11,633 bases of DNA from positions 1 to 11,633 of the IMG/VR virus record IMGVR_UViG_2548876940_000003; one strand, 5' to 3'. A program made the translations under genes and the position numbers. A model generated the notes under the pieces. The model made no database searches. It was given only the letters and a program-made list of their open reading frames with translations, and was not told the origin of the DNA. The DNA comes from a virus. Lineage: Duplodnaviria; Heunggongvirae; Uroviricota; Caudoviricetes. Shown piece by piece: positions 1 to 11,633 of this stretch (within the stretch, counting starts at the first letter, position 1; every line of letters begins with the position of its first letter).

Positions 1-6
1 GTGAGC

Positions 7-34
7 GGGGGCGAAATGCCCCCGTGTCTTTTTT
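7..34 (+). terminator. GC-rich stem-loop followed by a T-run; putative rho-independent terminator or mRNA-stabilising hairpin upstream of FI
   Basis: Positions 7-12 GGGGGC and 18-23 GCCCCC form a perfect 6-bp inverted repeat around a 5-nt loop (gaaat), followed by gtgtcTTTTTTc. It sits just upstream of the FI ribosome-binding site (aggggg, ~38-43). Confidence 0.4.
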
Positions 35-48
35 CACAGGGGGCTGAT

Positions 49-423
49 ATGGCAACGAAAGAGCAAAATCTGAAACGGCTTGATGAACTGGCCCTGATTC
101 TGGGGCGTGAGCCGGATATATCCGGGAGTGCCGCAGAGATAGCGCAGCGGGTGGCGGAATGGGAAGAGGAAATACAGTCATCCGGCGAGGATGTTCAGGT
201 TATGAATATGGATATCCGGGAGCGGGAAACCGCGGCTCATGATGTTCGTGAGGATACATCCGGTGCGTTAACGCGCATCAGAGTTCTGACCTGCCTCCAT
301 CTCTGTGGCATTGATGGTGAAACAGGGGAATCCGTTGAGCTTGCGGATGTTGGTCGGGTGATTCTGATTATGTCCTCAGATGCAAAAACACACGTTGATG
401 GCGGAATGGCTGTTTATGCGTGA
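49..423 (+). CDS. FI: DNA-packaging protein FI-like (head assembly/packaging accessory)
   Basis: ORF track frame 1..423. The likely true start is the ATG at 49 (MATKEQNLKRLDEL...), preceded by a purine-rich RBS. It sits immediately upstream of FII as in lambda, and the N-terminal helix resembles lambda gpFI from memory; the C-terminal half is more divergent. Confidence 0.7.
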   Translation: MATKEQNLKRLDELALILGREPDISGSAAEIAQRVAEWEEEIQSSGEDVQVMNMDIRERETAAHDVREDTSGALTRIRVLTCLHLCGIDGETGESVELADVGRVILIMSSDAKTHVDGGMAVYA

Positions 424-769
424 TTTTCAGAATGCCTTTGATGCCGCCCTTGCCGGGGTGGACAGTACGATTGTTGAAGTGATGGGCATCAGTGCGCAGT
501 TCACCTCCGGTGCACAGCGTGGCGGCGAAGTTCAGGGGGTTTTTGACGATCCGGAGTCGCTGGGGTTTGCCAGTAGTGGGATCCGTATTGAAGGAAGCAG
601 CCCGTCATTATTTGTGCGGACGGATACGGTTCGTGCCGTGCGGCGTGGTGACACGCTGACCATTAATGGTGAGACGTTCTGGGTGGATCGTGTTTCTCCG
701 GATGACGGGGGCAGTTGTTATCTCTGGCTGAACCGTGGGCAACCACCCGCAGTTAACCGGCGACGATAA
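416..769 (+). CDS. FII: Head-tail connector / head completion protein gpFII
   Basis: Translation from the ATG at 416 (MRDFQNAFDAA...GVFDDPE...EGSSPSLFVRTD...RRGDTLTI...FWVDRVSPDDGGSC..LWL.RG.PPAVNRRR) is near-colinear with lambda gpFII (117 aa). The track ORF begins at 380, but 416 matches the conserved N-terminus and overlaps the FI stop (ATGCGTGA). Confidence 0.85.
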   Translation: MRDFQNAFDAALAGVDSTIVEVMGISAQFTSGAQRGGEVQGVFDDPESLGFASSGIRIEGSSPSLFVRTDTVRAVRRGDTLTINGETFWVDRVSPDDGGSCYLWLNRGQPPAVNRRR

Positions 770-783
770 ACGCAGGGTGAATT

Positions 784-1359
784 ATGGCGATAAAAGGGCT
801 TGATCAGGCGATTGAAAATCTGAGCCGGGTTCGTAAAAACGCCATTCCGTCGGCTTCAGCAATGGCTATTAACCGCGTGGCTACAACGGCGATTAATCAG
901 TCTTCATCACAGGTTGCCCGGGAGACCAGGGTGAGACGGAAACTGGTAAAGGAACGGTCCAGACTGAAACGGGCGACGATCAGAAATCCGAATGCCAGAA
1001 TTATCGTTAACCGCGGTGATCTCCCTGCTATTAAGCTGGGGATCAGGATGCTTGGTCATCGTCCGAACAGCATACTTAAAGCCGGTCAGCATCGTTATCA
1101 GCGGGCATTCATCCAGCGATTAAATAATGGGCGCTGGCATGTTATGCAACGTTTGCCAGAAGCCCGGTATGCGAAGGGCAATGACGATAAAGGAAGGAAA
1201 AAGCGTAATCGTCTTCCCATTCAGGTGGTTAAAATTCCGATGGCGGCCCCACTGAAGCAGGCTTTTGATGAGAACGTTAACCGTATCCGGCGAGAACGTC
1301 TGCCAAAAGAACTGGGCTATGCGTTGAAACAACAACTAAGGATTGTGATAAAGCGATGA
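784..1359 (+). CDS. Z: Tail completion protein gpZ
   Basis: 191-aa ORF; the N-terminus MAIKGL.QA.ENLSR and C-terminus IRRERLPKELGYAL..QLR.VIKR match lambda gpZ. Position after FII and ATGA overlap with U. Confidence 0.9.
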   Translation: MAIKGLDQAIENLSRVRKNAIPSASAMAINRVATTAINQSSSQVARETRVRRKLVKERSRLKRATIRNPNARIIVNRGDLPAIKLGIRMLGHRPNSILKAGQHRYQRAFIQRLNNGRWHVMQRLPEARYAKGNDDKGRKKRNRLPIQVVKIPMAAPLKQAFDENVNRIRRERLPKELGYALKQQLRIVIKR

Positions 1360-1751
1360 AACATACGGATATCCGTGCAGCCGTACTGGATGCACTGGAG
1401 AAACATGATACCGGGGCGACGCTTTTTGATGGTCGCCCCGCTGTTTTTGATGAGGCGGATTTTCCGGCAATTGCCGTTTATCTCACCGGCGCTGAATACT
1501 CGGGCGAAGAGCTGGACTGCGATACCTGGCAGGCGGAGCTGCATATTGAAGTTTTTCTGCCTGCTCAGGTGCCGGATTCAGAGCTGGACACGTGGATGGA
1601 GTCCCGGATTTACCCGGTGATGAGCGATATCCCGGCACTGTCAGATTTGATCGCCAGTATGGTGGCCAGCGGCTATGACTACCGGCGCGATGATGATGTG
1701 GGCCTGTGGAGTTCAGCCGATCTGACTTATGTCATTACCTATGAAATGTGA
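1356..1751 (+). CDS. U: Tail tube terminator protein gpU
   Basis: 131-aa ORF ([123 protein letters not shown]), essentially colinear with lambda gpU. Confidence 0.95.
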
Positions 1752-1758
1752 GGACGAT

Positions 1759-2499
1759 ATGCCTGTACCAAATCCAGCAATACCGGTGAAAGGTGCCGGA
1801 ACCACCCTGTGGGTTTATAACGGAAACGGCGACCCTTATGCGAACCCGCTTTCAGACGTTGACTGGTCGCGTCTGGCAAAAGTTAAAGACCTGACGCCCG
1901 GCGAACTGACCGCGGAGTCCTATGACGACAGCTATCTCGATGATGAAGATGCGGACTGGACCGCAACCGGTCAGGGGCAGAAATCCGCCGGAGATACCAG
2001 CTTCACGCTGGCGTGGATGCCCGGAGAGCAGGGGCAGCAGGCGCTGCTGGCGTGGTTTAATGAAGGTGATACCCGTGCCTATAAAATTCGCTTCCCGAAC
2101 GGCACGGTCGATGTGTTCCGTGGCTGGGTCAGCAGTATCGGTAAGGCGGTGACGGCGAAGGAAGTGATCACCCGCACGGTGAAGGTCACCAATGTGGGAC
2201 GCCCGTCGATGGCAGAAGATCGCAGTACGGTGACAGCGGCAACCGGTATGACCGTGACGCCTGCCAGTGCTTCCGTGGTGAAAGGGAAGAGCACCACGCT
2301 GACTGTGGCATTTCAGCCGGAAGGCGCAACCGACAAGAGCTTCCGTGCGGTGTCAGAGGATAAAACAAAAGCCACCGTGTCGGTCAGTGGTATGACCATC
2401 ACCGTGAACGGTGTTGCTGCAGGTAAGGTCAACATTCCGGTTGTATCCGGTAATGGTGAGTTTGCTGCGGTTGCAGAAATCAACGTCACCGACAGCTAA
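1759..2499 (+). CDS. V: Major tail tube protein gpV with C-terminal Ig-like (Big_2) domain
   Basis: The track ORF starts at 1729, but that overlaps U. The ATG at 1759 gives MPVPNP...[10 protein letters not shown]...[47 protein letters not shown]..., matching lambda gpV. The C-terminal ~90 aa are rich in T/V/S, as in the lambda Ig-like decoration domain. Confidence 0.93.
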
Positions 2500-2513
2500 T
2501 CGGAGAGTCAGCG

Positions 2514-2936
2514 ATGTTCCTGAAAACCGAATCATTTGAATATAACGGCGTGAGCGTCACGCTTTCTGAGCTGTCAGCCCTGCAGCGTATTGAGCATCTT
2601 GCCCTGCTGAAACGGCAGGCAGAACAGGCGGGAGCCGGCGACAACCTGCAGGTGAGCGTGGAGGATCTCGTCAGAACCGGCGCGTTTCTGGTGGCGATGT
2701 CCCTGTGGCATAACCATCCGCAGAAGACAAAGAGGCCGTCCATGGATGAAGCCGTTAAACAGATTGAGCAGGAAGTGCTTACCACCTGGCCCACAGAGGC
2801 AATTGCTCAGGCTGAAAATGTGGTAATGCGTCTGTCCGGTATGTCTGAGTTTGTTGTGAATAATGCTCCTGAGCAGACAGAAGACGCGGGGCCTGCAGAG
2901 CCTGTTTCTGCGGGAAAGTGTTCGACGGTGAGCTGA
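2514..2936 (+). CDS. G: Tail assembly chaperone gpG
   Basis: 140-aa ORF (MFLKTESFE.NGV.VTLSELSALQRIEHLAL.KRQAEQA...AFLVAMSLWHNHPQKT..PSM.EAVKQIEQEVLTTWPTEAI..AENVV.RLSGM.EFVVNNAPEQTEDAGPAEPVSAGKCSTVS) matches lambda gpG, including the slippery site near its 3' end. Confidence 0.93.
   Translation: MFLKTESFEYNGVSVTLSELSALQRIEHLALLKRQAEQAGAGDNLQVSVEDLVRTGAFLVAMSLWHNHPQKTKRPSMDEAVKQIEQEVLTTWPTEAIAQAENVVMRLSGMSEFVVNNAPEQTEDAGPAEPVSAGKCSTVS
2912..2918 (+). promoter_or_regulatory. Programmed -1 ribosomal frameshift slippery heptamer G GGA AAG (G to G-T fusion)
   Basis: GGGAAAG lies in the G reading frame as G_GGA_AAG, 6 codons before the G stop. The -1 frame continues open for 141 codons (ORF 2918..3343), as in the lambda G/GT system. 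Confidence 0.85.
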
Positions 2937-3343
2937 GTTTTGCCCTGAAACTGGCGCGTGAGATGGGGAGACCCGACTGGCGTGCCATGCTTGCCGGGAT
3001 GTCATCCACGGAGTATGCCGACTGGCACCGCTTTTACAGCACCCATTATTTTCATGATGTTCTGCTGGATATGCACTTTTCCGGGCTGACGTACACCGTG
3101 CTCAGCCTGTTTTTCAGCGATCCGGATATGCATCCGCTGGATTTCAGTCTGCTGAACCGGCGCGAGGCTGACGAAGAGCCTGAAGATGATGTGCTGATGC
3201 AGAAAGCGGCAGGGCTTGCCGGAGGTGTTCGTTTTGGTCCGGACGGGAATGAAGTTATCCCCGCTTCCCCGGACATGACGGAGGATGACGCAATGCTGAT
3301 GACAGTATCAGAAGGGATCGCAGGAGGAGTCCGGTATGGCTGA
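2918..3343 (+). CDS. T: T-frame portion of the tail assembly chaperone gpGT fusion, expressed by -1 frameshift from G
   Basis: The -1 frame ORF begins at the slippery site and ends at a TGA overlapping the H start (3336). Acidic C-terminus as in lambda gpT. No independent RBS is expected. Confidence 0.85.
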   Translation: MFDGELSFALKLAREMGRPDWRAMLAGMSSTEYADWHRFYSTHYFHDVLLDMHFSGLTYTVLSLFFSDPDMHPLDFSLLNRREADEEPEDDVLMQKAAGLAGGVRFGPDGNEVIPASPDMTEDDAMLMTVSEGIAGGVRYG

Positions 3344-3878
3344 ACCGGTAGGCGATCTGGTCGTTGATTTAAGTCTGGATGCAGCCAGATTTGACGAGCA
3401 GATGGCCAGAGTCAGGCGTCATTTTTCCGGTACGGAAAGTGATGCGAAAAAAACAGCGGCAGTTGTTGAGCAGTCGATGAGCCGACAGGCGCTGGCTGCA
3501 CAGAAAGCGGGTATCTCTGTAGGGCAGTATAAAGCTGCCATGCGTATGCTGCCTGCGCAGTTCACCGACGTGGCCACGCAGCTTGCAGGGGGGCAGAACC
3601 CGTTTCTCATCCTGCTGCAACAGGGCGGTCAGGTAAAAGATTCCTTCGGTGGGTTGATCCCCATGTTCGGGGGGCTTGCCGGTGCAGTCACCCTGCCGAT
3701 GGTGGGGCTCACTTCGCTGGCAGTTGCCACCGGAGCGCTGGCGTATGCCTGGTATCAGGGGGACTCAACCCTGTCCAGTTTCAATAAAACGCTGGTCCTT
3801 TCCGGTAATCAGGCAGGACTAACGGCAGATCGTATGCTGGTCCTGTCCTGTCCAGAGCAGGGCAGGCGGCAGGGCTGA
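3336..3878 (+). CDS. H: Tail tape measure protein gpH, N-terminal fragment (reading frame broken at ~3849-3853)
   Basis: Strong RBS (aggagga) and ATG at 3336. MAEPVGDLVVDLSLDAARFDEQMARVRRHFSGTESDAKK... matches the lambda gpH N-terminus. The frame ends after LVLS with an aberrant CPEQGRRQG* tail, while the H sequence continues in another frame. Confidence 0.85.
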   Translation: MAEPVGDLVVDLSLDAARFDEQMARVRRHFSGTESDAKKTAAVVEQSMSRQALAAQKAGISVGQYKAAMRMLPAQFTDVATQLAGGQNPFLILLQQGGQVKDSFGGLIPMFGGLAGAVTLPMVGLTSLAVATGALAYAWYQGDSTLSSFNKTLVLSGNQAGLTADRMLVLSCPEQGRRQG

Positions 3879-5920
3879 CGTTTAACCAGACCAGCGAGTC
3901 ACTGACGGCGCTGGTGAATGCCGGTGTGCGTGGTGGTGAGCAGTTTGAGGCGATCAGCCAGAGTGTGGCGCGTTTCTCCTCTGCATCGGGCGTGGAGGTG
4001 GACAAGGTCGCTGAAGCCTTCGGGAAGCTGACCACAGACCCGACGTCGGGACTGACAGCGATGGCACGTCAGTTCCATAACGTGACGGCGGAGCAGATTG
4101 CGTATGTTGCTCAGTTGCAGCGTTCCGGAGATGAAGCCGGGGCATTGCAGGCGGCGAACGAGGCCGCAACGAAAGGGTTTGATGACCAGACCCGCCGCCT
4201 GAAAGAGAACATGGGCACGCTGGAGACCTGGGCAGACAGGACAGCACAGGCATTCAAATCCATGTGGGATGCGGTGCTGGATATTGGCCGCCCGGACTCC
4301 TCTGCAGATATGCTCGCCAAAGCTGAAAAGGCTTTTGATGAAGCGGATAAAAAATGGCAGTGGTATCAGAGCCGAAGCCACCGGCGCGGTAAAACGTCAG
4401 CATTTCTTGCCAATCTCCGGGGGGCATGGGAGAAGAGAGAGAATGCGCGACTTGGGCTTTCAGCCGCCACGTTGCAGGCCGATCTTGAAAAGGCCAGTGA
4501 GATGGCAGCAAAAGATCGGGCTGAGTCTGAGGCATCACGGCTGAAATATACCGAAGAGGCGCAGAAGGCTTACGAACGCCTGCAGACGCCGCTGGAGAAA
4601 TATACCGCCCGTCAGGAAGAACTGAATAAGGCACTGAAAGACGGGAAAATTCTGCAGGCAGATTACAACACGCTGATGGCGGCGGCGAAAAAGGATTATG
4701 AAGCGACGCTGAAAAAGCCGAAGCAGTCCGGCGTGAAGGTGTCTGCGGGTGATCGTCAGGAAGACAGTGCTCATGCTGCCCTGTTGACGCTTCAGGCAGA
4801 ACTCCGGACGCTGGAGAAGCATGCCGGAGCGAATGAGAAAATCAGCCAGCAGCGCCGGGATTTGTGGAAGGCGGAGAATCAGTTCGCGGTACTGGAGGAG
4901 GCGGCGCAACGTCGCCAGCTGTCTGCACAGGAGAAATCCCTGCTGGCGCATAAAGACGAGACGCTGGAGTACAAGCGCCAGCTGGCTGCACTTGGCGACA
5001 AGGTTACGTATCAGGAGCACCTGAACGCGCTGGCGCAGCAGGCGGATAAATTCGCACAGCAGCAACGGGCAAAACGGGCCGCCATTGATGCGAAAAGCCG
5101 GGGGCTGACTGACCGGCAGGCAGAACGGGAAGGCACGGAACAGCGCCTGAAGGAACAGTATGGCGATAATCCGCTGGCGCTGAATAACGTCATGTCAGAG
5201 CAGAAAAAGACCTGGGCGGCTGAAGACCAGCTTCGCGGGAGCTGGATGGCAGGCCTGAAGTCCGGCTGGAGTGAGTGGGAAGAGAGCGCCACGGACAGTA
5301 TGTCGCAGGTAAAAAGTGCAGCCACGCAGACCTTTGATGGAATTGCACAGAATATGGCGGCGATGCTGACCGGCAGTGAGCAGAACTGGCGCAGCTTCAC
5401 CCGTTCCGTGCTGTCTATGATGACAGAAATTCTGCTTAAGCAGGCAATGGTGGGGATTGTCGGGAGTATCGGCAGCGCCATTGGCGGGGCTGCCGGTGGT
5501 GGCGCATCCGCGTCAGGCGGTAGAGCCATTCAGGCCGCTGCGGCGAAATTCCATTTTGCAACCGGAGGATTTACGGGAACCGGCGGCAAATATGAGCCAG
5601 CGGGGATTGTTCACCGTGGTGAGTTTGTCTTCACGAAGGAGGCAACCAGCCGGATTGGCGTGGGGAATCTTTACCGGCTGATGCGCGGCTATGCCACCGG
5701 CGGTTATGTCGGTACACCGGGCAGCATGGCAGACAGCCGATCGCAGGCGTCCGGGACGTTTGAGCAGAATAACCATGTGGTGATTAACAACGACGGCACG
5801 AACGGGCAGATTGGACCACAGGCGCTGAAGGCTGTGTATGACATGGCCCGCAAGGGTGCCCGTGATGAAATTCAGGCACAGATGCGCGATGGTGGTCTGT
5901 TCTCCGGAGGTGGACGATGA
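3842..5920 (+). CDS. H: Tail tape measure protein gpH, C-terminal ~690 codons in the shifted frame (likely pseudogene or sequencing error)
   Basis: The frame 3842.. reads PVLSRAGQAAGLTFNQTSESL...ISQSVARFSSASGVEVDKVAEAFGKLTTDPTSGL..., colinear with lambda gpH through to the C-terminal ...MRDGGLFSGGGR. The track ORF 3914..5920 starts at an internal GTG. The stop overlaps the M start (ATGA). Confidence 0.85.
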   Translation, partial: PVLSRAGQAAGLTFNQTSESLTALVNAGVRGGEQFEAISQSVARFSSASGVEVDKVAEAFGKLTTDPTSGLTAMARQFHNVTAEQIAYVAQLQRSGDEAGALQAANEAATKGFDDQTRRLKENMGTLETWADRTAQAFKSMWDAVLDIGRPDSSADMLAKAEKAFDEADKKWQWYQSRSHRRGKTSAFLANLRGAWEKRENARLGLSAATLQADLEKASEMAAKDRAESEASRLKYTEEAQKAYERLQTPLEKYTARQEELNKALKDGKILQADYNTLMAAAKKDYEATLKKPKQSGVKVSAGDRQEDSAHAALLTLQAELRTLEKHAGANEKISQQRRDLWKAENQFAVLEEAAQRRQLSAQEKSLLAHKDETLEYKRQLAALGDKVTYQEHLNALAQQADKFAQQQRAKRAAIDAKSRGLTDRQAEREGTEQRLKEQYGDNPLALNNVMSEQKKTWAAEDQLRGSWMAGLKSGWSEWEESATDSMSQVKSAATQTFDGIAQNMAAMLTGSEQNWRSFTRSVLSMMTEILLKQAMVGIVGSIGSAIGGAAGGGASASGGRAIQAAAAKFHFATGGFTGTGGKYEPAGIVHRGEFVFTKEATSRIGVGNLYRLMRGYATGGYVGTPGSMADSRSQASGTFEQNNHVVINNDGTNGQIGPQALKAVYDMARKGARDEIQAQMRDGGLFSGGGR

Positions 5921-6246
5921 AAACCTTCCGCTGGAAAGTGAAACCCGGGATGGATGTGACATCGGCTCCTTCCGTCAGGGAGGTGCGCTTTGGTGATGGC
6001 TATTCCCAGCGTGCGCCTGCCGGGCTGAACGCTGACCTGAAAACGTACAGCGTGACGCTGTCTGTCTCCCGTGAGGAGGCCACGGCGCTGGAGTCGTTTC
6101 TGGCTGAGCACGGGGGCTGGAAGGCCTTTCTGTGGACGCCGCCTTATGGTTACAGGCAGATAAAGGTGACCTGCGCAAAATGGTCGTCGCAGGTCAGTAT
6201 GCTGCGTGTTGAGTTCAGCGCAGAGTTTAAACAGGTGGTGAACTGA
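5917..6246 (+). CDS. M: Tail tip protein gpM
   Basis: 109-aa ORF (MKTFRWKVKPGMDV...VRFGDGYSQRAPAGLNA.LKTYSVTLSV.REEAT.LESFL.EHGGWK.FLWTPPY..RQIKVTCAKWSS.VSMLRVEFSAEF.QVVN), colinear with lambda gpM. Confidence 0.95.
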   Translation: MKTFRWKVKPGMDVTSAPSVREVRFGDGYSQRAPAGLNADLKTYSVTLSVSREEATALESFLAEHGGWKAFLWTPPYGYRQIKVTCAKWSSQVSMLRVEFSAEFKQVVN

Positions 6247-6944
6247 TGCAGGATATCCGGCAGGAAACACTGAATGAATGCACCCGTGCGGAGCAGTCGG
6301 CCAGCGTGGTGCTCTGGGAAATCGATCTGACAGAGGTCGGTGGAGAACGTTATTTTTTCTGTAATGAGCAGAACGAAAAAGGTGAGCCGGTCACCTGGCA
6401 GGGGAGGCAGTATCAGGCGTATCCCATTCAGGGGAGCGGTTTTGAACTGAATGGCAAAGGCACCAGTACGCGGCCCACGCTGGCAGTCTCTAACCTGTAC
6501 GGCATGGTCACCGGTATGGTGGAAGATATGCAGAGTCTGGTCGGCGGAACGGTGGTCAGGCGTAAGGTTTACGCCCGTTTTCTGGATGCGGTGAACTTCG
6601 TCAACGGAAACAGTGACGCCGATCCGGAGCAGGAGGTGATCAGCCGCTGGCGCATCGAGCAGTGCAGTGAACTGAGCGCGGTGAGTGCCTCCTTTGTACT
6701 GGCCACGCCGACGGAAACGGATGGCGCTGTTTTTCCGGGGCGTATCATGCTGGCCAACACCTGCACCTGGACCTATCGCGGTGATGAGTGCGGTTATAAC
6801 GGTCCGGCTGTCGCGGATGAATATGACCAGCCGACGTCCGATATCACGAAGGATAAATGCAGCAAATGCCTGAGTGGCTGTAAGTTTCGCAATAACGTCG
6901 GCAACTTTGGCGGCTTCCTTTCCATTAACAAACTTTCGCAGTAA
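6246..6944 (+). CDS. L: Tail tip protein gpL (C-terminal cysteine cluster, iron-sulfur binding in lambda)
   Basis: 232-aa ORF (MQDIRQETLNECTRAEQSASVVLWEIDLTEVGGERYFFCNEQNEKGEPVTWQGRQYQ.YPIQGSGFELNGKGTSTRPTL.VSNLYGMVTGM.EDMQSLVGGTVVRRKVYARFLDAVNFVNGNS.ADPEQEV...CTWTYRGDECGY.GP...DKCSKCLSGCKFRNNVGNFGGFLSINKLSQ) matches lambda gpL. Confidence 0.95.
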   Translation: MQDIRQETLNECTRAEQSASVVLWEIDLTEVGGERYFFCNEQNEKGEPVTWQGRQYQAYPIQGSGFELNGKGTSTRPTLAVSNLYGMVTGMVEDMQSLVGGTVVRRKVYARFLDAVNFVNGNSDADPEQEVISRWRIEQCSELSAVSASFVLATPTETDGAVFPGRIMLANTCTWTYRGDECGYNGPAVADEYDQPTSDITKDKCSKCLSGCKFRNNVGNFGGFLSINKLSQ

Positions 6945-6949
6945 ATCCC

Positions 6950-7693
6950 ATGACACAGACAGAATCAGCGATTCTGGCGCACGCCCGGCGATGTGCGCCA
7001 GCGGAGTCGTGCGGCTTCGTGGTAAGCACGCCGGAGGGGGAAAGATATTTCCCCTGCGTGAATATCTCCGGTGAGCCGGAGGCGTATTTCCGTATGTCGC
7101 CGGAAGACTGGCTGCAGGCAGAAATGCAGGGTGAGATTGTGGCGCTGGTCCACAGCCACCCCGGTGGTCTACCCTGGCTGAGTGAGGCCGACCGGCGGCT
7201 GCAGGTGCAGAGTGATTTGCCGTGGTGGCTGGTCTGCCGGGGGACGATTCATAAGTTCCGCTGTGTGCCGCATCTCACCGGGCGGCGCTTTGAGCACGGT
7301 GTGACGGACTGTTACACACTGTTCCGGGATGCTTATCATCTGGCGGGGATTGAGATGCCGGACTTTCATCGTGAGGATGACTGGTGGCGTAACGGCCAGA
7401 ATCTCTATCTGGATAATCTGGAGGCGACGGGGCTGTATCAGGTGCCGTTGTCAGCGGCACAGCCGGGCGATGTGCTGCTGTGCTGTTTTGGTTCATCGGT
7501 GCCGAATCACGCCGCAATTTACTGCGGCGACGGCGAGCTGCTGCACCATATTCCTGAACAACTGAGCAAACGAGAGAGGTACACCGACAAATGGCAGCGA
7601 CGCACACACTCCCTCTGGCGTCACCGGGCATGGCGCGCATCTGCCTTTACGGGGATTTACAACGATTTGGTCGCCGCATCGACCTTCGTGTGA
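6950..7693 (+). CDS. K: Tail tip assembly protein gpK (MPN/JAMM domain plus NlpC/P60-like domain)
   Basis: 247-aa ORF. It contains a complete JAMM motif (E in AESCGF, then HSHPGGLPWLSEAD = HxHx7Sx2D) and a C-terminal Cys/His region (TDCYTLF...NHAAIY..LLHH). The lambda annotation I recall uses the internal Met at 7094 (MSPEDW..., 199 aa); the 6950 start includes the whole MPN domain. The 3' end overlaps I by 103 nt. Confidence 0.85.
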   Translation: MTQTESAILAHARRCAPAESCGFVVSTPEGERYFPCVNISGEPEAYFRMSPEDWLQAEMQGEIVALVHSHPGGLPWLSEADRRLQVQSDLPWWLVCRGTIHKFRCVPHLTGRRFEHGVTDCYTLFRDAYHLAGIEMPDFHREDDWWRNGQNLYLDNLEATGLYQVPLSAAQPGDVLLCCFGSSVPNHAAIYCGDGELLHHIPEQLSKRERYTDKWQRRTHSLWRHRAWRASAFTGIYNDLVAASTFV

Positions 7694-8262
7694 AAACGGG
7701 GGCTGAAGCCATCCGGGCACTGGCCACACAGCTCCCGGCGTTTCGTCAGAAACTGAGCGACGGCTGGTATCAGGTACGGATTGCCGGGCGGGACGTCAGC
7801 ACGTCCGGGTTAACGGCTCAGTTACATGAGACTCTGCCTGATGGCGCTGTGATTCATATTGTTCCCAGAGTCGCCGGGGCCAAGTCAGGTGGCGTATTCC
7901 AGATTGTCCTGGGGGCTGCCGCCATTGCCGGATCATTCTTTACCGCCGGAGCCACCCTTGCAGCATGGGGGGCAGCCATTGGGGCCGGTGGTATGACCGG
8001 CATCCTGTTTTCTCTCGGTGCCAGTATGGTGCTCGGTGGTGTGGCGCAGATGCTGGCACCGAAAGCCAGAACTCCCCGTACACAGACAACGGATAACGGT
8101 AAGCAGAACACCTATTTCTCCTCACTGGATAACATGGTTGCCCAGGGCAATGTTCTGCCCGTTCTGTACGGTGAAATGCGCGTGGGGTCTCGCGTGGTTT
8201 CTCAGGAGATCAGCACGGCAGACGAAGGGGACGGTGGTCAGGTTGTGGTGATTGGTCGCTGA
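7591..8262 (+). CDS. I: Tail tip assembly protein gpI
   Basis: 223-aa ORF (MAATHTLPLASPGMARICLYGDLQRFGRRIDLRVKTGAEAIRALATQLPAFRQKLSDGWYQVRIAGRDVS...GEMRVGSRVVSQEISTADEGDGGQVVVIGR), colinear with lambda gpI. It starts inside the 3' end of K in another frame, as in lambda. Confidence 0.93.
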   Translation: MAATHTLPLASPGMARICLYGDLQRFGRRIDLRVKTGAEAIRALATQLPAFRQKLSDGWYQVRIAGRDVSTSGLTAQLHETLPDGAVIHIVPRVAGAKSGGVFQIVLGAAAIAGSFFTAGATLAAWGAAIGAGGMTGILFSLGASMVLGGVAQMLAPKARTPRTQTTDNGKQNTYFSSLDNMVAQGNVLPVLYGEMRVGSRVVSQEISTADEGDGGQVVVIGR

Positions 8263-8280
8263 TGCAAAATGTTTTATGTG

Positions 8281-8301
8281 AAACCGCCTGCGGGCGGTTT
8301 T
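8281..8301 (+). terminator. Intergenic I-J stem-loop with trailing T-run (putative attenuator or RNA-stability hairpin)
   Basis: AAACCGCC-tgcg-GGCGGTTT is a perfect 8-bp inverted repeat with a 4-nt loop, followed by TTTTgtcgTTTaT, in the 60-nt gap between the I stop (8262) and the J RBS/ATG (8323). Confidence 0.4.
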
Positions 8302-8322
8302 GTCGTTTATGGAGCGTGAGGA

Positions 8323-10263
8323 ATGGGTAAAGGCAGCAGTAAGGGGCATACCCCGCGCGAAGCGAAAGATAACCTGAAATCCACGCAGCTGCTGAGTGTG
8401 ATTGATGCCATCAGCGAAGGGCCGATTGAAGGTCCGGTGGATGGATTAAAAAGCGTGCTGCTGAACAGTACGCCGGTGCTGGACAGTGAGGGGAATACCA
8501 ACATCTCCGGCGTCACGGTGGTGTTCCGGGCAGGTGAGCAGGAGCAGACACCGCCGGAAGGTTTTGAATCCTCCGGCTCCGAGACGGTGCTGGGTACGGA
8601 AGTGAAATATGACACGCCGATCACCCGCACCATCACGTCGGCAAACATCGACCGCCTGCGCTTTACCTTCGGTGTGCAGGCACTGGTGGAAACCACCTCA
8701 AAGGGGGACCGGAATCCGTCGGAAGTCCGCCTGCTGGTTCAGATACAGCGTAACGGTGGCTGGGTGACGGAAAAAGACATCACCATTAAGGGCAAAACCA
8801 CCTCGCAGTATCTGGCCTCGGTGGTGGTGGATAACCTGCCGCCGCGCCCGTTTAATATCCGGATGCGCAGGATGATGCCGGACAGCACCACAGACCAGCT
8901 GCAGAACAAAACGCTCTGGTCGTCATACACCGAAATCATCGATGTGAAACAGTGCTACCCGAACACGGCACTGGTCGGCGTACAGGTGGACTCGGAGCAG
9001 TTCGGCAGCCAGCAGGTGAGTCGTAATTATCATCTTCGCGGGCGCATTCTGCAGGTGCCGTCGAACTATAACCCGCAGACGCGACAATACAGCGGTATCT
9101 GGGACGGAACGTTAAAACCAGCATACAGCAACAACATGGCCTGGTGTCTGTGGGATATGCTGACCCACCCGCGCTACGGCATGGGGAAACGTCTTGGTGC
9201 GGCGGATGTGGACAAATGGGCGCTGTATGTCATCGGCCAGTACTGCGACCAGTCAGTGCCGGACGGCTTTGGCGGCACGGAGCTGCGCATCACCTGTAAT
9301 GCGTACCTGACCACACAGCGCAAGGCGTGGGATGTGCTCAGTGATTTCTGCTCGGCGATGCGCTGTATGCCGGTATGGAACGGGCAGACGCTGACGTTCG
9401 TGCAGGACCGACCGTCGGATAAGGTGTGGACCTATAACCGCAGTAATGTGGTGATGCCGGATGATGGCGCGCCGTTCCGCTACAGCTTCAGCGCCCTGAA
9501 GGACCGCCATAATGCCGTTGAGGTGAACTGGATTGACCCGAACAACGGCTGGGAGACGGCGACAGAGCTTGTGGAGGATACGCAGGCCATTGCCCGTTAC
9601 GGTCGTAACGTCACGAAGATGGATGCTTTTGGCTGTACCAGCCGGGGGCAGGCACACCGCGCCGGGCTGTGGCTGATTAAAACAGAACTGCTGGAAACGC
9701 AGACCGTGGACTTCAGCGTGGGCGCAGAAGGGCTTCGCCATGTGCCGGGCGATGTCATTGAAATCTGCGATGATGACTATGCCGGTATCAGCACCGGCGG
9801 GCGCGTGCTGGCGGTGAACAGCCAGACCCGGACGCTGACGCTCGACCGTGAAATCACGCTGCCATCCTCCGGTACCACGCTGATAAGCCTGGTTGACGGA
9901 AGTGGCAATCCGGTCAGCGTGGAGGTTCAGTCCGTCACCGACGGCGTGAAGGTGAAAGTGAGCCGTGTTCCTGACGGCGTTGCTGAATACAGCGTATGGG
10001 GGCTGAAGCTGCCGACGCTGCGCCAGCGCCTGTTCCGCTGCGTGAGTATCCGTGAGAACGATGACGGCACGTATGCCATCACTGCCGTGCAGCATGTACC
10101 GGAAAAAGAAGCCATCGTGGATAACGGGGCGCACTTTGACGGCGACCAGAGCGGCACGGTGAATGGTGTCACGCCGCCAGCGGTACAGCACCTGACTGCC
10201 GAAGTCACCGCAGACAGCGGGGAATATCAGGTGCTGGCGCGCTGGGACACCCGAAGGTGGTGA
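8323..10263 (+). CDS. J: Tail tip / central fibre host-specificity protein gpJ, N-terminal ~640 codons (frame broken at ~10250)
   Basis: RBS tgagga and ATG at 8323. [54 protein letters not shown]... is colinear with lambda gpJ. The ORF ends prematurely with ...ARWDTRRW* where lambda reads ...[14 protein letters not shown].... Confidence 0.9.
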
Positions 10264-11633
10264 AGGGCGTTAGCTTCCTTCTTCGCCTGACCGTGGCAGC
10301 GGATGACGGCAGTGAGCGGCTGGTCAGCACGGCCCGGACGACGGAAACCACATACCGCTTCAGGCAACTGGCGCTGGGGCGTTACACGCTGACAGTCCGG
10401 GCGGTAAATGCGTGGGGACAGCAGGGCGATCCGGCGTCGGTATCGTTCCGGATTGCCGCACCGGCAGCGCCGTCGCGGATTGAGCTGACGCCGGGCTATT
10501 TTCAGATAACCGCCACGCCGCATCTTGCGGTTTATGATCCGACGGTACAGTTTGAATTCTGGTTCTCGGAAAAGCGGATTGCGGATATCAGGCAGGTTGA
10601 AACCACAGCCCGCTATCTTGGCACGGCGCTGTACTGGATAGCTGCCAGTATCAATATTAAGCCGGGCCATGATTATTATTTTTACATCTGCAGTGTGAAC
10701 ACCGTTGGCAAATCGGCATTTGTGGAGGCCGTCGGCCAGCCGAGTGATGATGCATCCGGCTATCTGGATTTTTTCAAAGGCGAGATAGGGAAAACCCATC
10801 TGGCTCAGGAGTTGTGGACGCAGATTGATAACGGTCAGCTTGCGCCTGACCTGGCTGAAATCAGGACGTCCATTACGGATGTCAGCAATGAAATCACGCA
10901 GACCGTCAATAAGAAACTGGAAGACCAGAGTGCGGCAATTCAGCAGATACAGAAGGTTCAGGTTGATACAAATAATAACCTGAACAGCATGTGGGCTGTG
11001 AAGCTGCAGCAGATGCAGGACGGACGCCTTTATATCGCGGGTATTGGTGCCGGTATTGAGAACACCTCTGACGGCATGCAGAGTCAGGTGCTGCTGGCGG
11101 CGGACAGGATTGCGATGGTTAATCCTGCGAATGGCAACACAAAACCGATGTTTGTTGGTCAGGGCGATCAGATATTCATGAACGACGTGTTCCTGAAACG
11201 CCTGACGGCCCCCACCATTACCAGCGGTGGAAATCCACCGGCATTTTCCCTGACACCGGACGGAAAGCTGACCGCTAAAAATGCGGATATCAGTGGCAGT
11301 GTGAATGCGAACGCCGGGACGCTCAACAATGTCACGATTAACGAGAACTGTCGGGTTCTGGGAAAACTGTCCGCGAACCAGATTGAAGGCGATCTCGTTA
11401 AAACAGTGGGCAAAGCTTTCCCCCGGGACTCCCGTGCACCGGAACGGTGGCCATCAGGGACCATTACCGTCAGGGTTTATGACGATCAGCCGTTTGACCG
11501 GCAGATTGTTATTCCGGCGGTGGCATTCAGCGGCGCTAAACATGAGAGAGAGCATACTGATATTTACTCCTCATGCCGTCTGATAGTGCGGAAAAACGGT
11601 GCTGAAATTTATAACCGTACCGCGCTGGATAAT
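10254..11633 (+). CDS. J: gpJ C-terminal continuation in the shifted frame (partial; open to the end of the window)
   Basis: By my manual translation, the frame starting at 10254 has no stop through 11633 and reads [104 protein letters not shown]...[47 protein letters not shown]..., matching the distal half of lambda gpJ. It is not in the ORF track, presumably because it lacks a start codon and a stop within the window. Confidence 0.85.

Follow-up and report, generated by a model that had tools for sequence, protein, structure and literature searches.

The closest described relatives of the tail module considered here are phage 21 (OL657228.1) and the ECOR/ev-series lambda-like phages (Jouyvirus), functional temperate siphoviruses in which the tail genes run FI-FII-Z-U-V-G/T-H-M-L-K-I-J. 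The sequence that we analyzed, an 11,633-base-pair (bp) stretch of the viral record IMGVR_UViG_2548876940_000003 referred to below as the window, has the same order and about 94% nucleotide identity to these phages over most of its length, and they were its best phage matches. It corresponds to the complete contig AIAU01000221.1 of assembly GCA_000446445.2 (locus L003; 100% end to end). Phage 21 has the same cos 12-mer, the same type of head genes A to E, and the same G-T slippery site as the prophage in the window, and it differs in having another type of Nu1 (40% amino acid identity) and in the extreme 3' end of J, which diverges from the window after position 11421. A further difference lies in two tail genes: phage 21 encodes an intact H of 853 amino acids (aa) and an intact J of 1160 aa, whereas both genes are frameshifted in the window. 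We propose, with a probability of about 0.9, that the window holds the tail module of a phage-21/lambda-like temperate siphovirus in an Escherichia coli chromosome and that two genuine, independent mutations inactivate H, the tape-measure gene, and J, the gene for the central tail fiber and host specificity.

Prophages with defects of this kind have been described from E. coli O157 Sakai, where defective lambdoid prophages are rescued by co-resident prophages through complementation and recombination (PMC2669165). The Sakai Sp prophages are likewise lambdoid elements of an attaching/effacing-type E. coli that carry effector cargo and defects in morphogenesis genes, and they share near-identical late modules with co-resident prophages able to complement them or recombine with them (Asadulghani et al. 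2009, PMC2669165). They typically contain multiple defects, including insertion sequence (IS) insertions and deletions, whereas the prophage in the window has only two small insertions or deletions (indels) in the roughly 27 kilobases (kb) examined. For the K-I-J part of the window, the closest relative is the prophage of O26:H11 strain 11368 (NC_013361.1; J is ECO26_RS16510), which is 98.4% identical over 4.5 kb and does not have the deletion found in J of the window. Its J is a pseudogene for another reason, a 3' truncation beside an IS66-family element.

All gaps between the window and phage 21 or Lambda_ev058 were listed. The indels relative to these phages belonged to compensated pairs within a few bases, were in frame, or were intergenic, with two exceptions, one in H and one in J. 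The H gene (3336 to 5920, plus strand) is split into a first reading frame at 3336 to 3878 (180 aa) and a second at 3914 to 5920 (668 aa), with the Pfam families TMP_2 and Tape_meas_lam_C spanning the two fragments. The frameshift arises from a 5-bp tandem duplication of GTCCT at 3840 to 3844 on the plus strand. The window reads GTCCTGTCCTGTCC at 3840 to 3853 (GTCCT GTCCT GTCC), compared with GTCCT GTCC in phage 21 and Lambda_ev058, and the shifted frame runs into a premature TGA at 3876 to 3878. This tandem of a 5-nucleotide unit was read directly from the sequence, as the repeat finder did not report it. The lesion adds one unit to a short direct repeat that already existed, which is the signature of slipped-strand mispairing. 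The J gene (8323 to 11633, plus strand; Pfam FNIII-A_GpJ, Phage-tail_3, and Ig_J) runs off the end of the contig and is split at 10263, and downstream of this point a different frame stays open as far as the window reaches. Here a single G is missing between 10250 and 10251 on the plus strand (GACAC[G]CCGAAG in the O26:H11 11368 prophage, with the lost base in brackets, versus GACACCCGAAG in the window), so that the window reads CACCCG at 10248 to 10253, and a premature TGA follows at 10261 to 10263. The missing G is the only gap in the alignment to the O26:H11 prophage, the closest relative that is intact at the J site.

The initial annotation had named frameshifts in H and J as the sole anomalies of the module, and in silico repair agrees with it, as each gene opens fully once its indel is reversed. 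Removal of the 5 bp gave an uninterrupted H of 859 aa, and addition of the G gave an uninterrupted J of 1159 aa (with the 3' end taken from locus L010). The window has the gene order, the protein families, and the G-T slippery site of a lambda-type tail module and lacks the uninterrupted H and J that belong to one. Among the related loci that were read at full length, the gene is in one frame in all except L013 and L014 for H and L037 and L040 for J, and the breaks in these four lie at other sites than the window's H and J lesions. Because every related locus read was uninterrupted at both sites, the lesions are derived and do not reflect a conserved design for recoding.

Both lesions recur outside the source assembly. 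A T-protein look-up led to contig JANWGQ010000007.1 (174,903 bp) of the separately deposited assembly GCA_041890445.1, of which loci L010, L019, and L032 are parts; it is 100.000% identical to the window over 11,633 bp and contains both indels, and neither H nor J has a called product in its record. The H duplication is also present in a 9341-bp contig of GCA_021449985.1, which stops short of the J site and differs from the window by 4 single-nucleotide polymorphisms (SNPs), with 0 gaps, over 9326 bp; in a 6398-bp scaffold of the ENA metagenome assembly ERZ28640788 (2 SNPs and 0 gaps over 6398 bp); and, without gaps, in the Logan assemblies of SRR18173770, ERR180862, and SRR12495199. These five datasets are 99.95 to 100% identical to the window with no indels, and four of them (ERZ28640788 and the three Logan assemblies) have the exact 180-aa truncated H product. 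In all, seven datasets have the H lesion and two assemblies have the J lesion; the loci with the H duplication besides L003 are L004 to L007, L010/L019/L032, and L020. Members of this lineage differ at five positions of the window: C to T at 3929 (H, Arg to Cys; L004 and L005), C to G at 5411 (H, Leu to Val; L004 and L020), C to T at 8653 (J, Arg to Cys; L020), and, in I, the synonymous changes G to A at 7731 and A to G at 8064 (both L020). At least three haplotypes (C-C, C-G, and T-G at 3929 and 5411) carry the H duplication, which is therefore older than their divergence and has been inherited in the lineage. Neither lesion was found among 5426 complete E. coli genomes, and exact-pattern scans for the lesion junctions gave no match in one-genome-per-species contigs or in IMG/VR viral contigs. 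The lineage is thus not a species representative. None of the complete E. coli genomes exceeded about 95% identity over positions 1 to 4600 of the window.

The initial annotation had also offered a low-quality consensus as an alternative. On such a reading, one or both frameshifts would be errors in a fragmented draft assembly, perhaps from collapsed near-identical prophage tail modules. It is true that the source contig has only 11.6 kb and belongs to a draft assembly, that this and other short-read contigs end at likely repeat boundaries (1-2 and 4614), and that the exact 646-aa product of the J N-terminal fragment is on record for the source assembly only. However, that look-up is uninformative, since the lesion-bearing NCBI record gives no J product and the short-read contigs stop short. 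Both indels are present at full identity in the 174.9-kb contig, the H indel was recovered from five further datasets produced by different pipelines, there are zero indel discrepancies across 6.4 to 9.3 kb of independent sequence, and neither indel is a homopolymer length error, as the H lesion duplicates a 5-bp unit and the J lesion removes a lone G between C's. We therefore reject a low-quality consensus as very improbable and regard the frameshifts as genuine mutations; our confidence in this is high for H and good for J. Even less credible is that the mutations are real and harmless, with tails still made because ribosomes bypass the shifts (+1 in H and -1 in J) or translate the downstream fragments separately as functional split genes. 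The downstream parts of H and J are both fully open, a GTG at 3914 starts the 668-aa H fragment, and the out-of-frame stretch of H has the rare arginine codons AGG-CGG directly before its TGA. Inspection of the sequence, however, showed no X XXY YYZ heptamer for a -1 shift in the stretch from 10251 to 10263 and none of the known +1 motifs from 3840 to 3878, and no Shine-Dalgarno-like sequence or ribosome-binding site lies ahead of the GTG. An Rfam search of the window matched no RNA family, and recoding would have had to arise twice, independently, within the same module.

It is also possible, although we consider it unlikely, that the host favored the loss of tails, either because this locks the cargo genes nleG and lom in place or because the host is spared the cost of a productive induction, and that selection maintains the rest of the prophage. 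Such immobilization or domestication is compatible with an H lesion inherited across haplotypes, with the other late genes being complete open reading frames while H and J are broken, and with the nleG effector gene downstream, which is the only hint of repurposing by the host. The SNPs point the same way, as the three in the broken H and J are all nonsynonymous and the two in the intact I are both synonymous. This pattern fits relaxed constraint on H and J and is suggestive, but five sites are no proof. H and J are also the largest mutational targets, with about 6 kb of about 20 kb of late coding sequence, so that two random hits there are unremarkable. Recency explains the intact state of the other genes equally well: neither H nor J has acquired a further stop or indel, and every other late gene examined is a complete open reading frame, which argues for recent inactivation of both genes.

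Several points weigh against the reading of two genuine inactivating mutations in an otherwise complete late region. The J deletion is backed by only two assemblies (GCA_000446445.2 and GCA_041890445.1), which may be different isolates or one strain sequenced twice; either case counts against a consensus error in J, unless the same reads were re-assembled. Sharing of the J lesion was scored in these two only, as the sequence from the other lineage datasets stops short of the J site. The complete E. coli genomes contained no unlesioned copy of near identity (>99%), and the ancestral state is therefore taken from relatives at 94 to 98% identity. The statement that other genes are intact covers the late region, and the early region (integrase, repressor, replication, and Q) lies outside it. 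Finally, the absence of tails is predicted from the sequence together with lambda genetics.

In lambda, gpH and gpJ are both needed for the tail initiator on which gpV polymerizes, and H or J mutants make no tails but still form DNA-filled heads. Because both proteins are needed for the initiator, the prophage in the window would be unable to make tails from its own genes. We suggest that the slipped-strand expansion of GTCCT GTCC to GTCCT GTCCT GTCC would cut H after about 169 native residues and that loss of the single G would cut J after 643 of 1159 residues, leaving DNA-filled heads as the most that the prophage could produce by itself. The element would then persist locked in the chromosome together with its cargo (lom and nleG), and the formation of particles would need tails, or recombinational repair, from co-resident lambdoid prophages. 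By analogy with the Sakai prophages, rescue along either route, through tails supplied in trans or through recombination, is plausible, and modules of this kind are present in E. coli genomes in a median of 3 copies and in as many as 15. Independent short-read contigs (L003, L004, and L005 to L007) begin or end at the shared window coordinates 1-2, 2696, 2953, and 4614. Shared breakpoints of this kind are the pattern expected when near-identical tail modules of other prophages are present in the same genomes.

The rest of the tail module follows the description in the initial annotation. Annotation and alignment to phage 21 place it in the phage-21/lambda type, with FI to J in lambda order on the plus strand; the coordinates of the open reading frames and the collinearity with annotated phage 21 agree with this order, and a matching Pfam family was recorded for every called gene of the window. 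No extra genes are inserted between FI and J within the window, as had also been noted. All the genes that follow are on the plus strand, and each is a complete open reading frame unless stated otherwise. An FI-like DNA packaging protein (49 to 423; 124 aa) aligns to the FI coding sequence of phage 21, and the identical gene of L010 and L019 is on record with Pfam Packaging_FI; among the loci read, the exact FI protein is restricted to this lineage. It is followed by the head-tail joining protein FII (416 to 769; 117 aa; Phage_attach), the tail completion protein Z (784 to 1359; 191 aa; Minor_tail_Z), the tail terminator U (1356 to 1751; 131 aa; Phage_tail_U), and the major tail tube protein V (1759 to 2499; 246 aa; Phage_TTP_12 and Big_2). 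The tape-measure chaperone gene G (2514 to 2936; 140 aa; Phage_TAC_2) contains the heptamer GGGAAAG at 2912 to 2918, which was read directly from the sequence and is the conserved slippery site for the predicted programmed -1 frameshift from G to T; phage 21 is annotated with a joined G-T product at the equivalent place. The T reading frame (2918 to 3343; 141 aa; Phage_tail_T) lies at -1 relative to G. Near 3274 it has a 9-bp in-frame deletion compared with phage 21 and Lambda_ev058, giving 141 aa instead of 144 aa, and because 221 blocks of the collection list the 141-aa product, it is a normal, widespread allele.

Downstream of H are the tail tip proteins M (5917 to 6246; 109 aa; Phage_min_tail), L (6246 to 6944; 232 aa; Phage_tail_L), and K (6950 to 7693; 247 aa), the last with JAB and NlpC/P60 domains (Prok-JAB and NLPC_P60), and the tail assembly protein I (7591 to 8262), which has 223 aa when started at the ATG at 7591, as annotated in phage 21, and 190 aa when started at 7690, as the gene callers have it. 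Some related prophages have a minus-strand gene for a Cu/Zn superoxide dismutase (Sod_Cu) between I and J (L009:15353-15874, L014:15350-15871, and L018:15353-15874), which the window does not have. Within J, the G+C content falls to 49% at 10501 to 11000, in the central to C-terminal part. Homology to phage 21 stops at 11421, while the match to PhiR46_1 extends to the end of the window at 11633. The drop in G+C content and the break at 11421 probably mark mosaic joints within the receptor-binding region of J.

The long contig (L019, L010, and L032) adds about 10 kb upstream of the window and about 5 kb downstream, so that about 27 kb of late region was examined in all; the module lies at about 133 to 156 kb of the 174.9-kb contig. 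Upstream, genes were called for a holin, a lysozyme, an Rz-like spanin, a pRha-like protein, a DUF3950 protein, Nu1, and the head proteins A, W, B, C, D, and E. The last six are each in a single frame with 93 to 99% amino acid identity to the phage 21 proteins, and the alignments cover W, B, C, and D completely, A from residue 6 onward, and E as far as residue 336 of 342; the called A-to-E products are equal in length to those of phage 21. The cohesive-end 12-mer of the phage 21 cos site is present and identical. The small terminase Nu1 (L019:2796-3305) has only about 40% amino acid identity to Nu1 of phage 21, and a differing Nu1 beside A-to-E genes of the phage 21 type and the same cos probably marks a module swap at the cosB/Nu1 specificity region. 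Downstream of the window, which was walked using an L-protein look-up (an I-protein look-up matched unrelated prophages only, the I protein being ubiquitous), J is followed by lom and a 437-aa side-fiber gene (phage_tail_N, collagen repeats, and Phage_fiber_C), and then by genes for an 89-aa tfa-like Phage_fiber_C protein and a 215-aa NleG type III effector. The nleG gene is at L032:18082-18729, about 2.7 kb beyond the end of the window and after the side tail fiber genes, and it suggests an attaching/effacing-type E. coli as the host and a role of the prophage in carrying effectors.

In the roughly 27 kb of late region, H and J are the only broken genes. The initial annotation had proposed to look for further pseudogenes in flanking phage regions, among them the head and lysis genes, and none was seen in these two: the lysis genes were called and the head genes align at full length. 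It had also offered a cryptic or defective prophage as one of its two readings. Defective stands, as H and J are truncated by real lesions, but cryptic does not suit a late region that is otherwise complete and retains cos. With lysis genes and cos present, head genes that align at full length, and all other tail genes complete, "tail-defective, recently inactivated" is the better description. A heavily decayed cryptic remnant was considered and rejected for the late region, where the lysis genes were called, the head genes align to phage 21 at full length, and the remaining tail and fiber genes are complete open reading frames. Comparison with related prophages, which the initial annotation had suggested as a check on whether the lesions are fixed, showed the H lesion to be kept across the lineage datasets and the J lesion to be shared by two assemblies.

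Lesions in the same two genes occur elsewhere in this phage group. H has a frameshift in L013, and the H match in L014 is truncated. L037 (12077-15489) and L040, which come from different assemblies, share the same J frameshift near residue 297, and this is another inherited tail-gene lesion in the group. Many of the best complete-genome matches, and O26 11368, have IS66, IS30, and IS3 elements within J or next to it, and J is disrupted by an IS element in L008. The phenomenon is thus a well-known one, as decay of this sort is commonplace among lambdoid prophages of E. coli. The anomaly in the window is real biology and not a bad consensus, and it matters mainly as a clean negative. It provides a small worked example of an inherited slipped-strand duplication in a tape-measure gene, with a late region that is otherwise apparently intact, and it illustrates how recovery of an identical lesion from independent assemblies can decide whether a frameshift in a draft contig is real. 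One public record of identical sequence lists no product for H or J. A speculative extension, which we regard as improbable, is that the lesioned prophage, whose cos, terminase, head, and lysis genes are apparently intact, is not dead and may on induction yield DNA-filled heads that are completed by the tails of co-resident lambdoid prophages, a helper-dependent lifestyle reached by simple decay. If this is true, the nleG cargo would spread with a host range set by the J protein of the helper.

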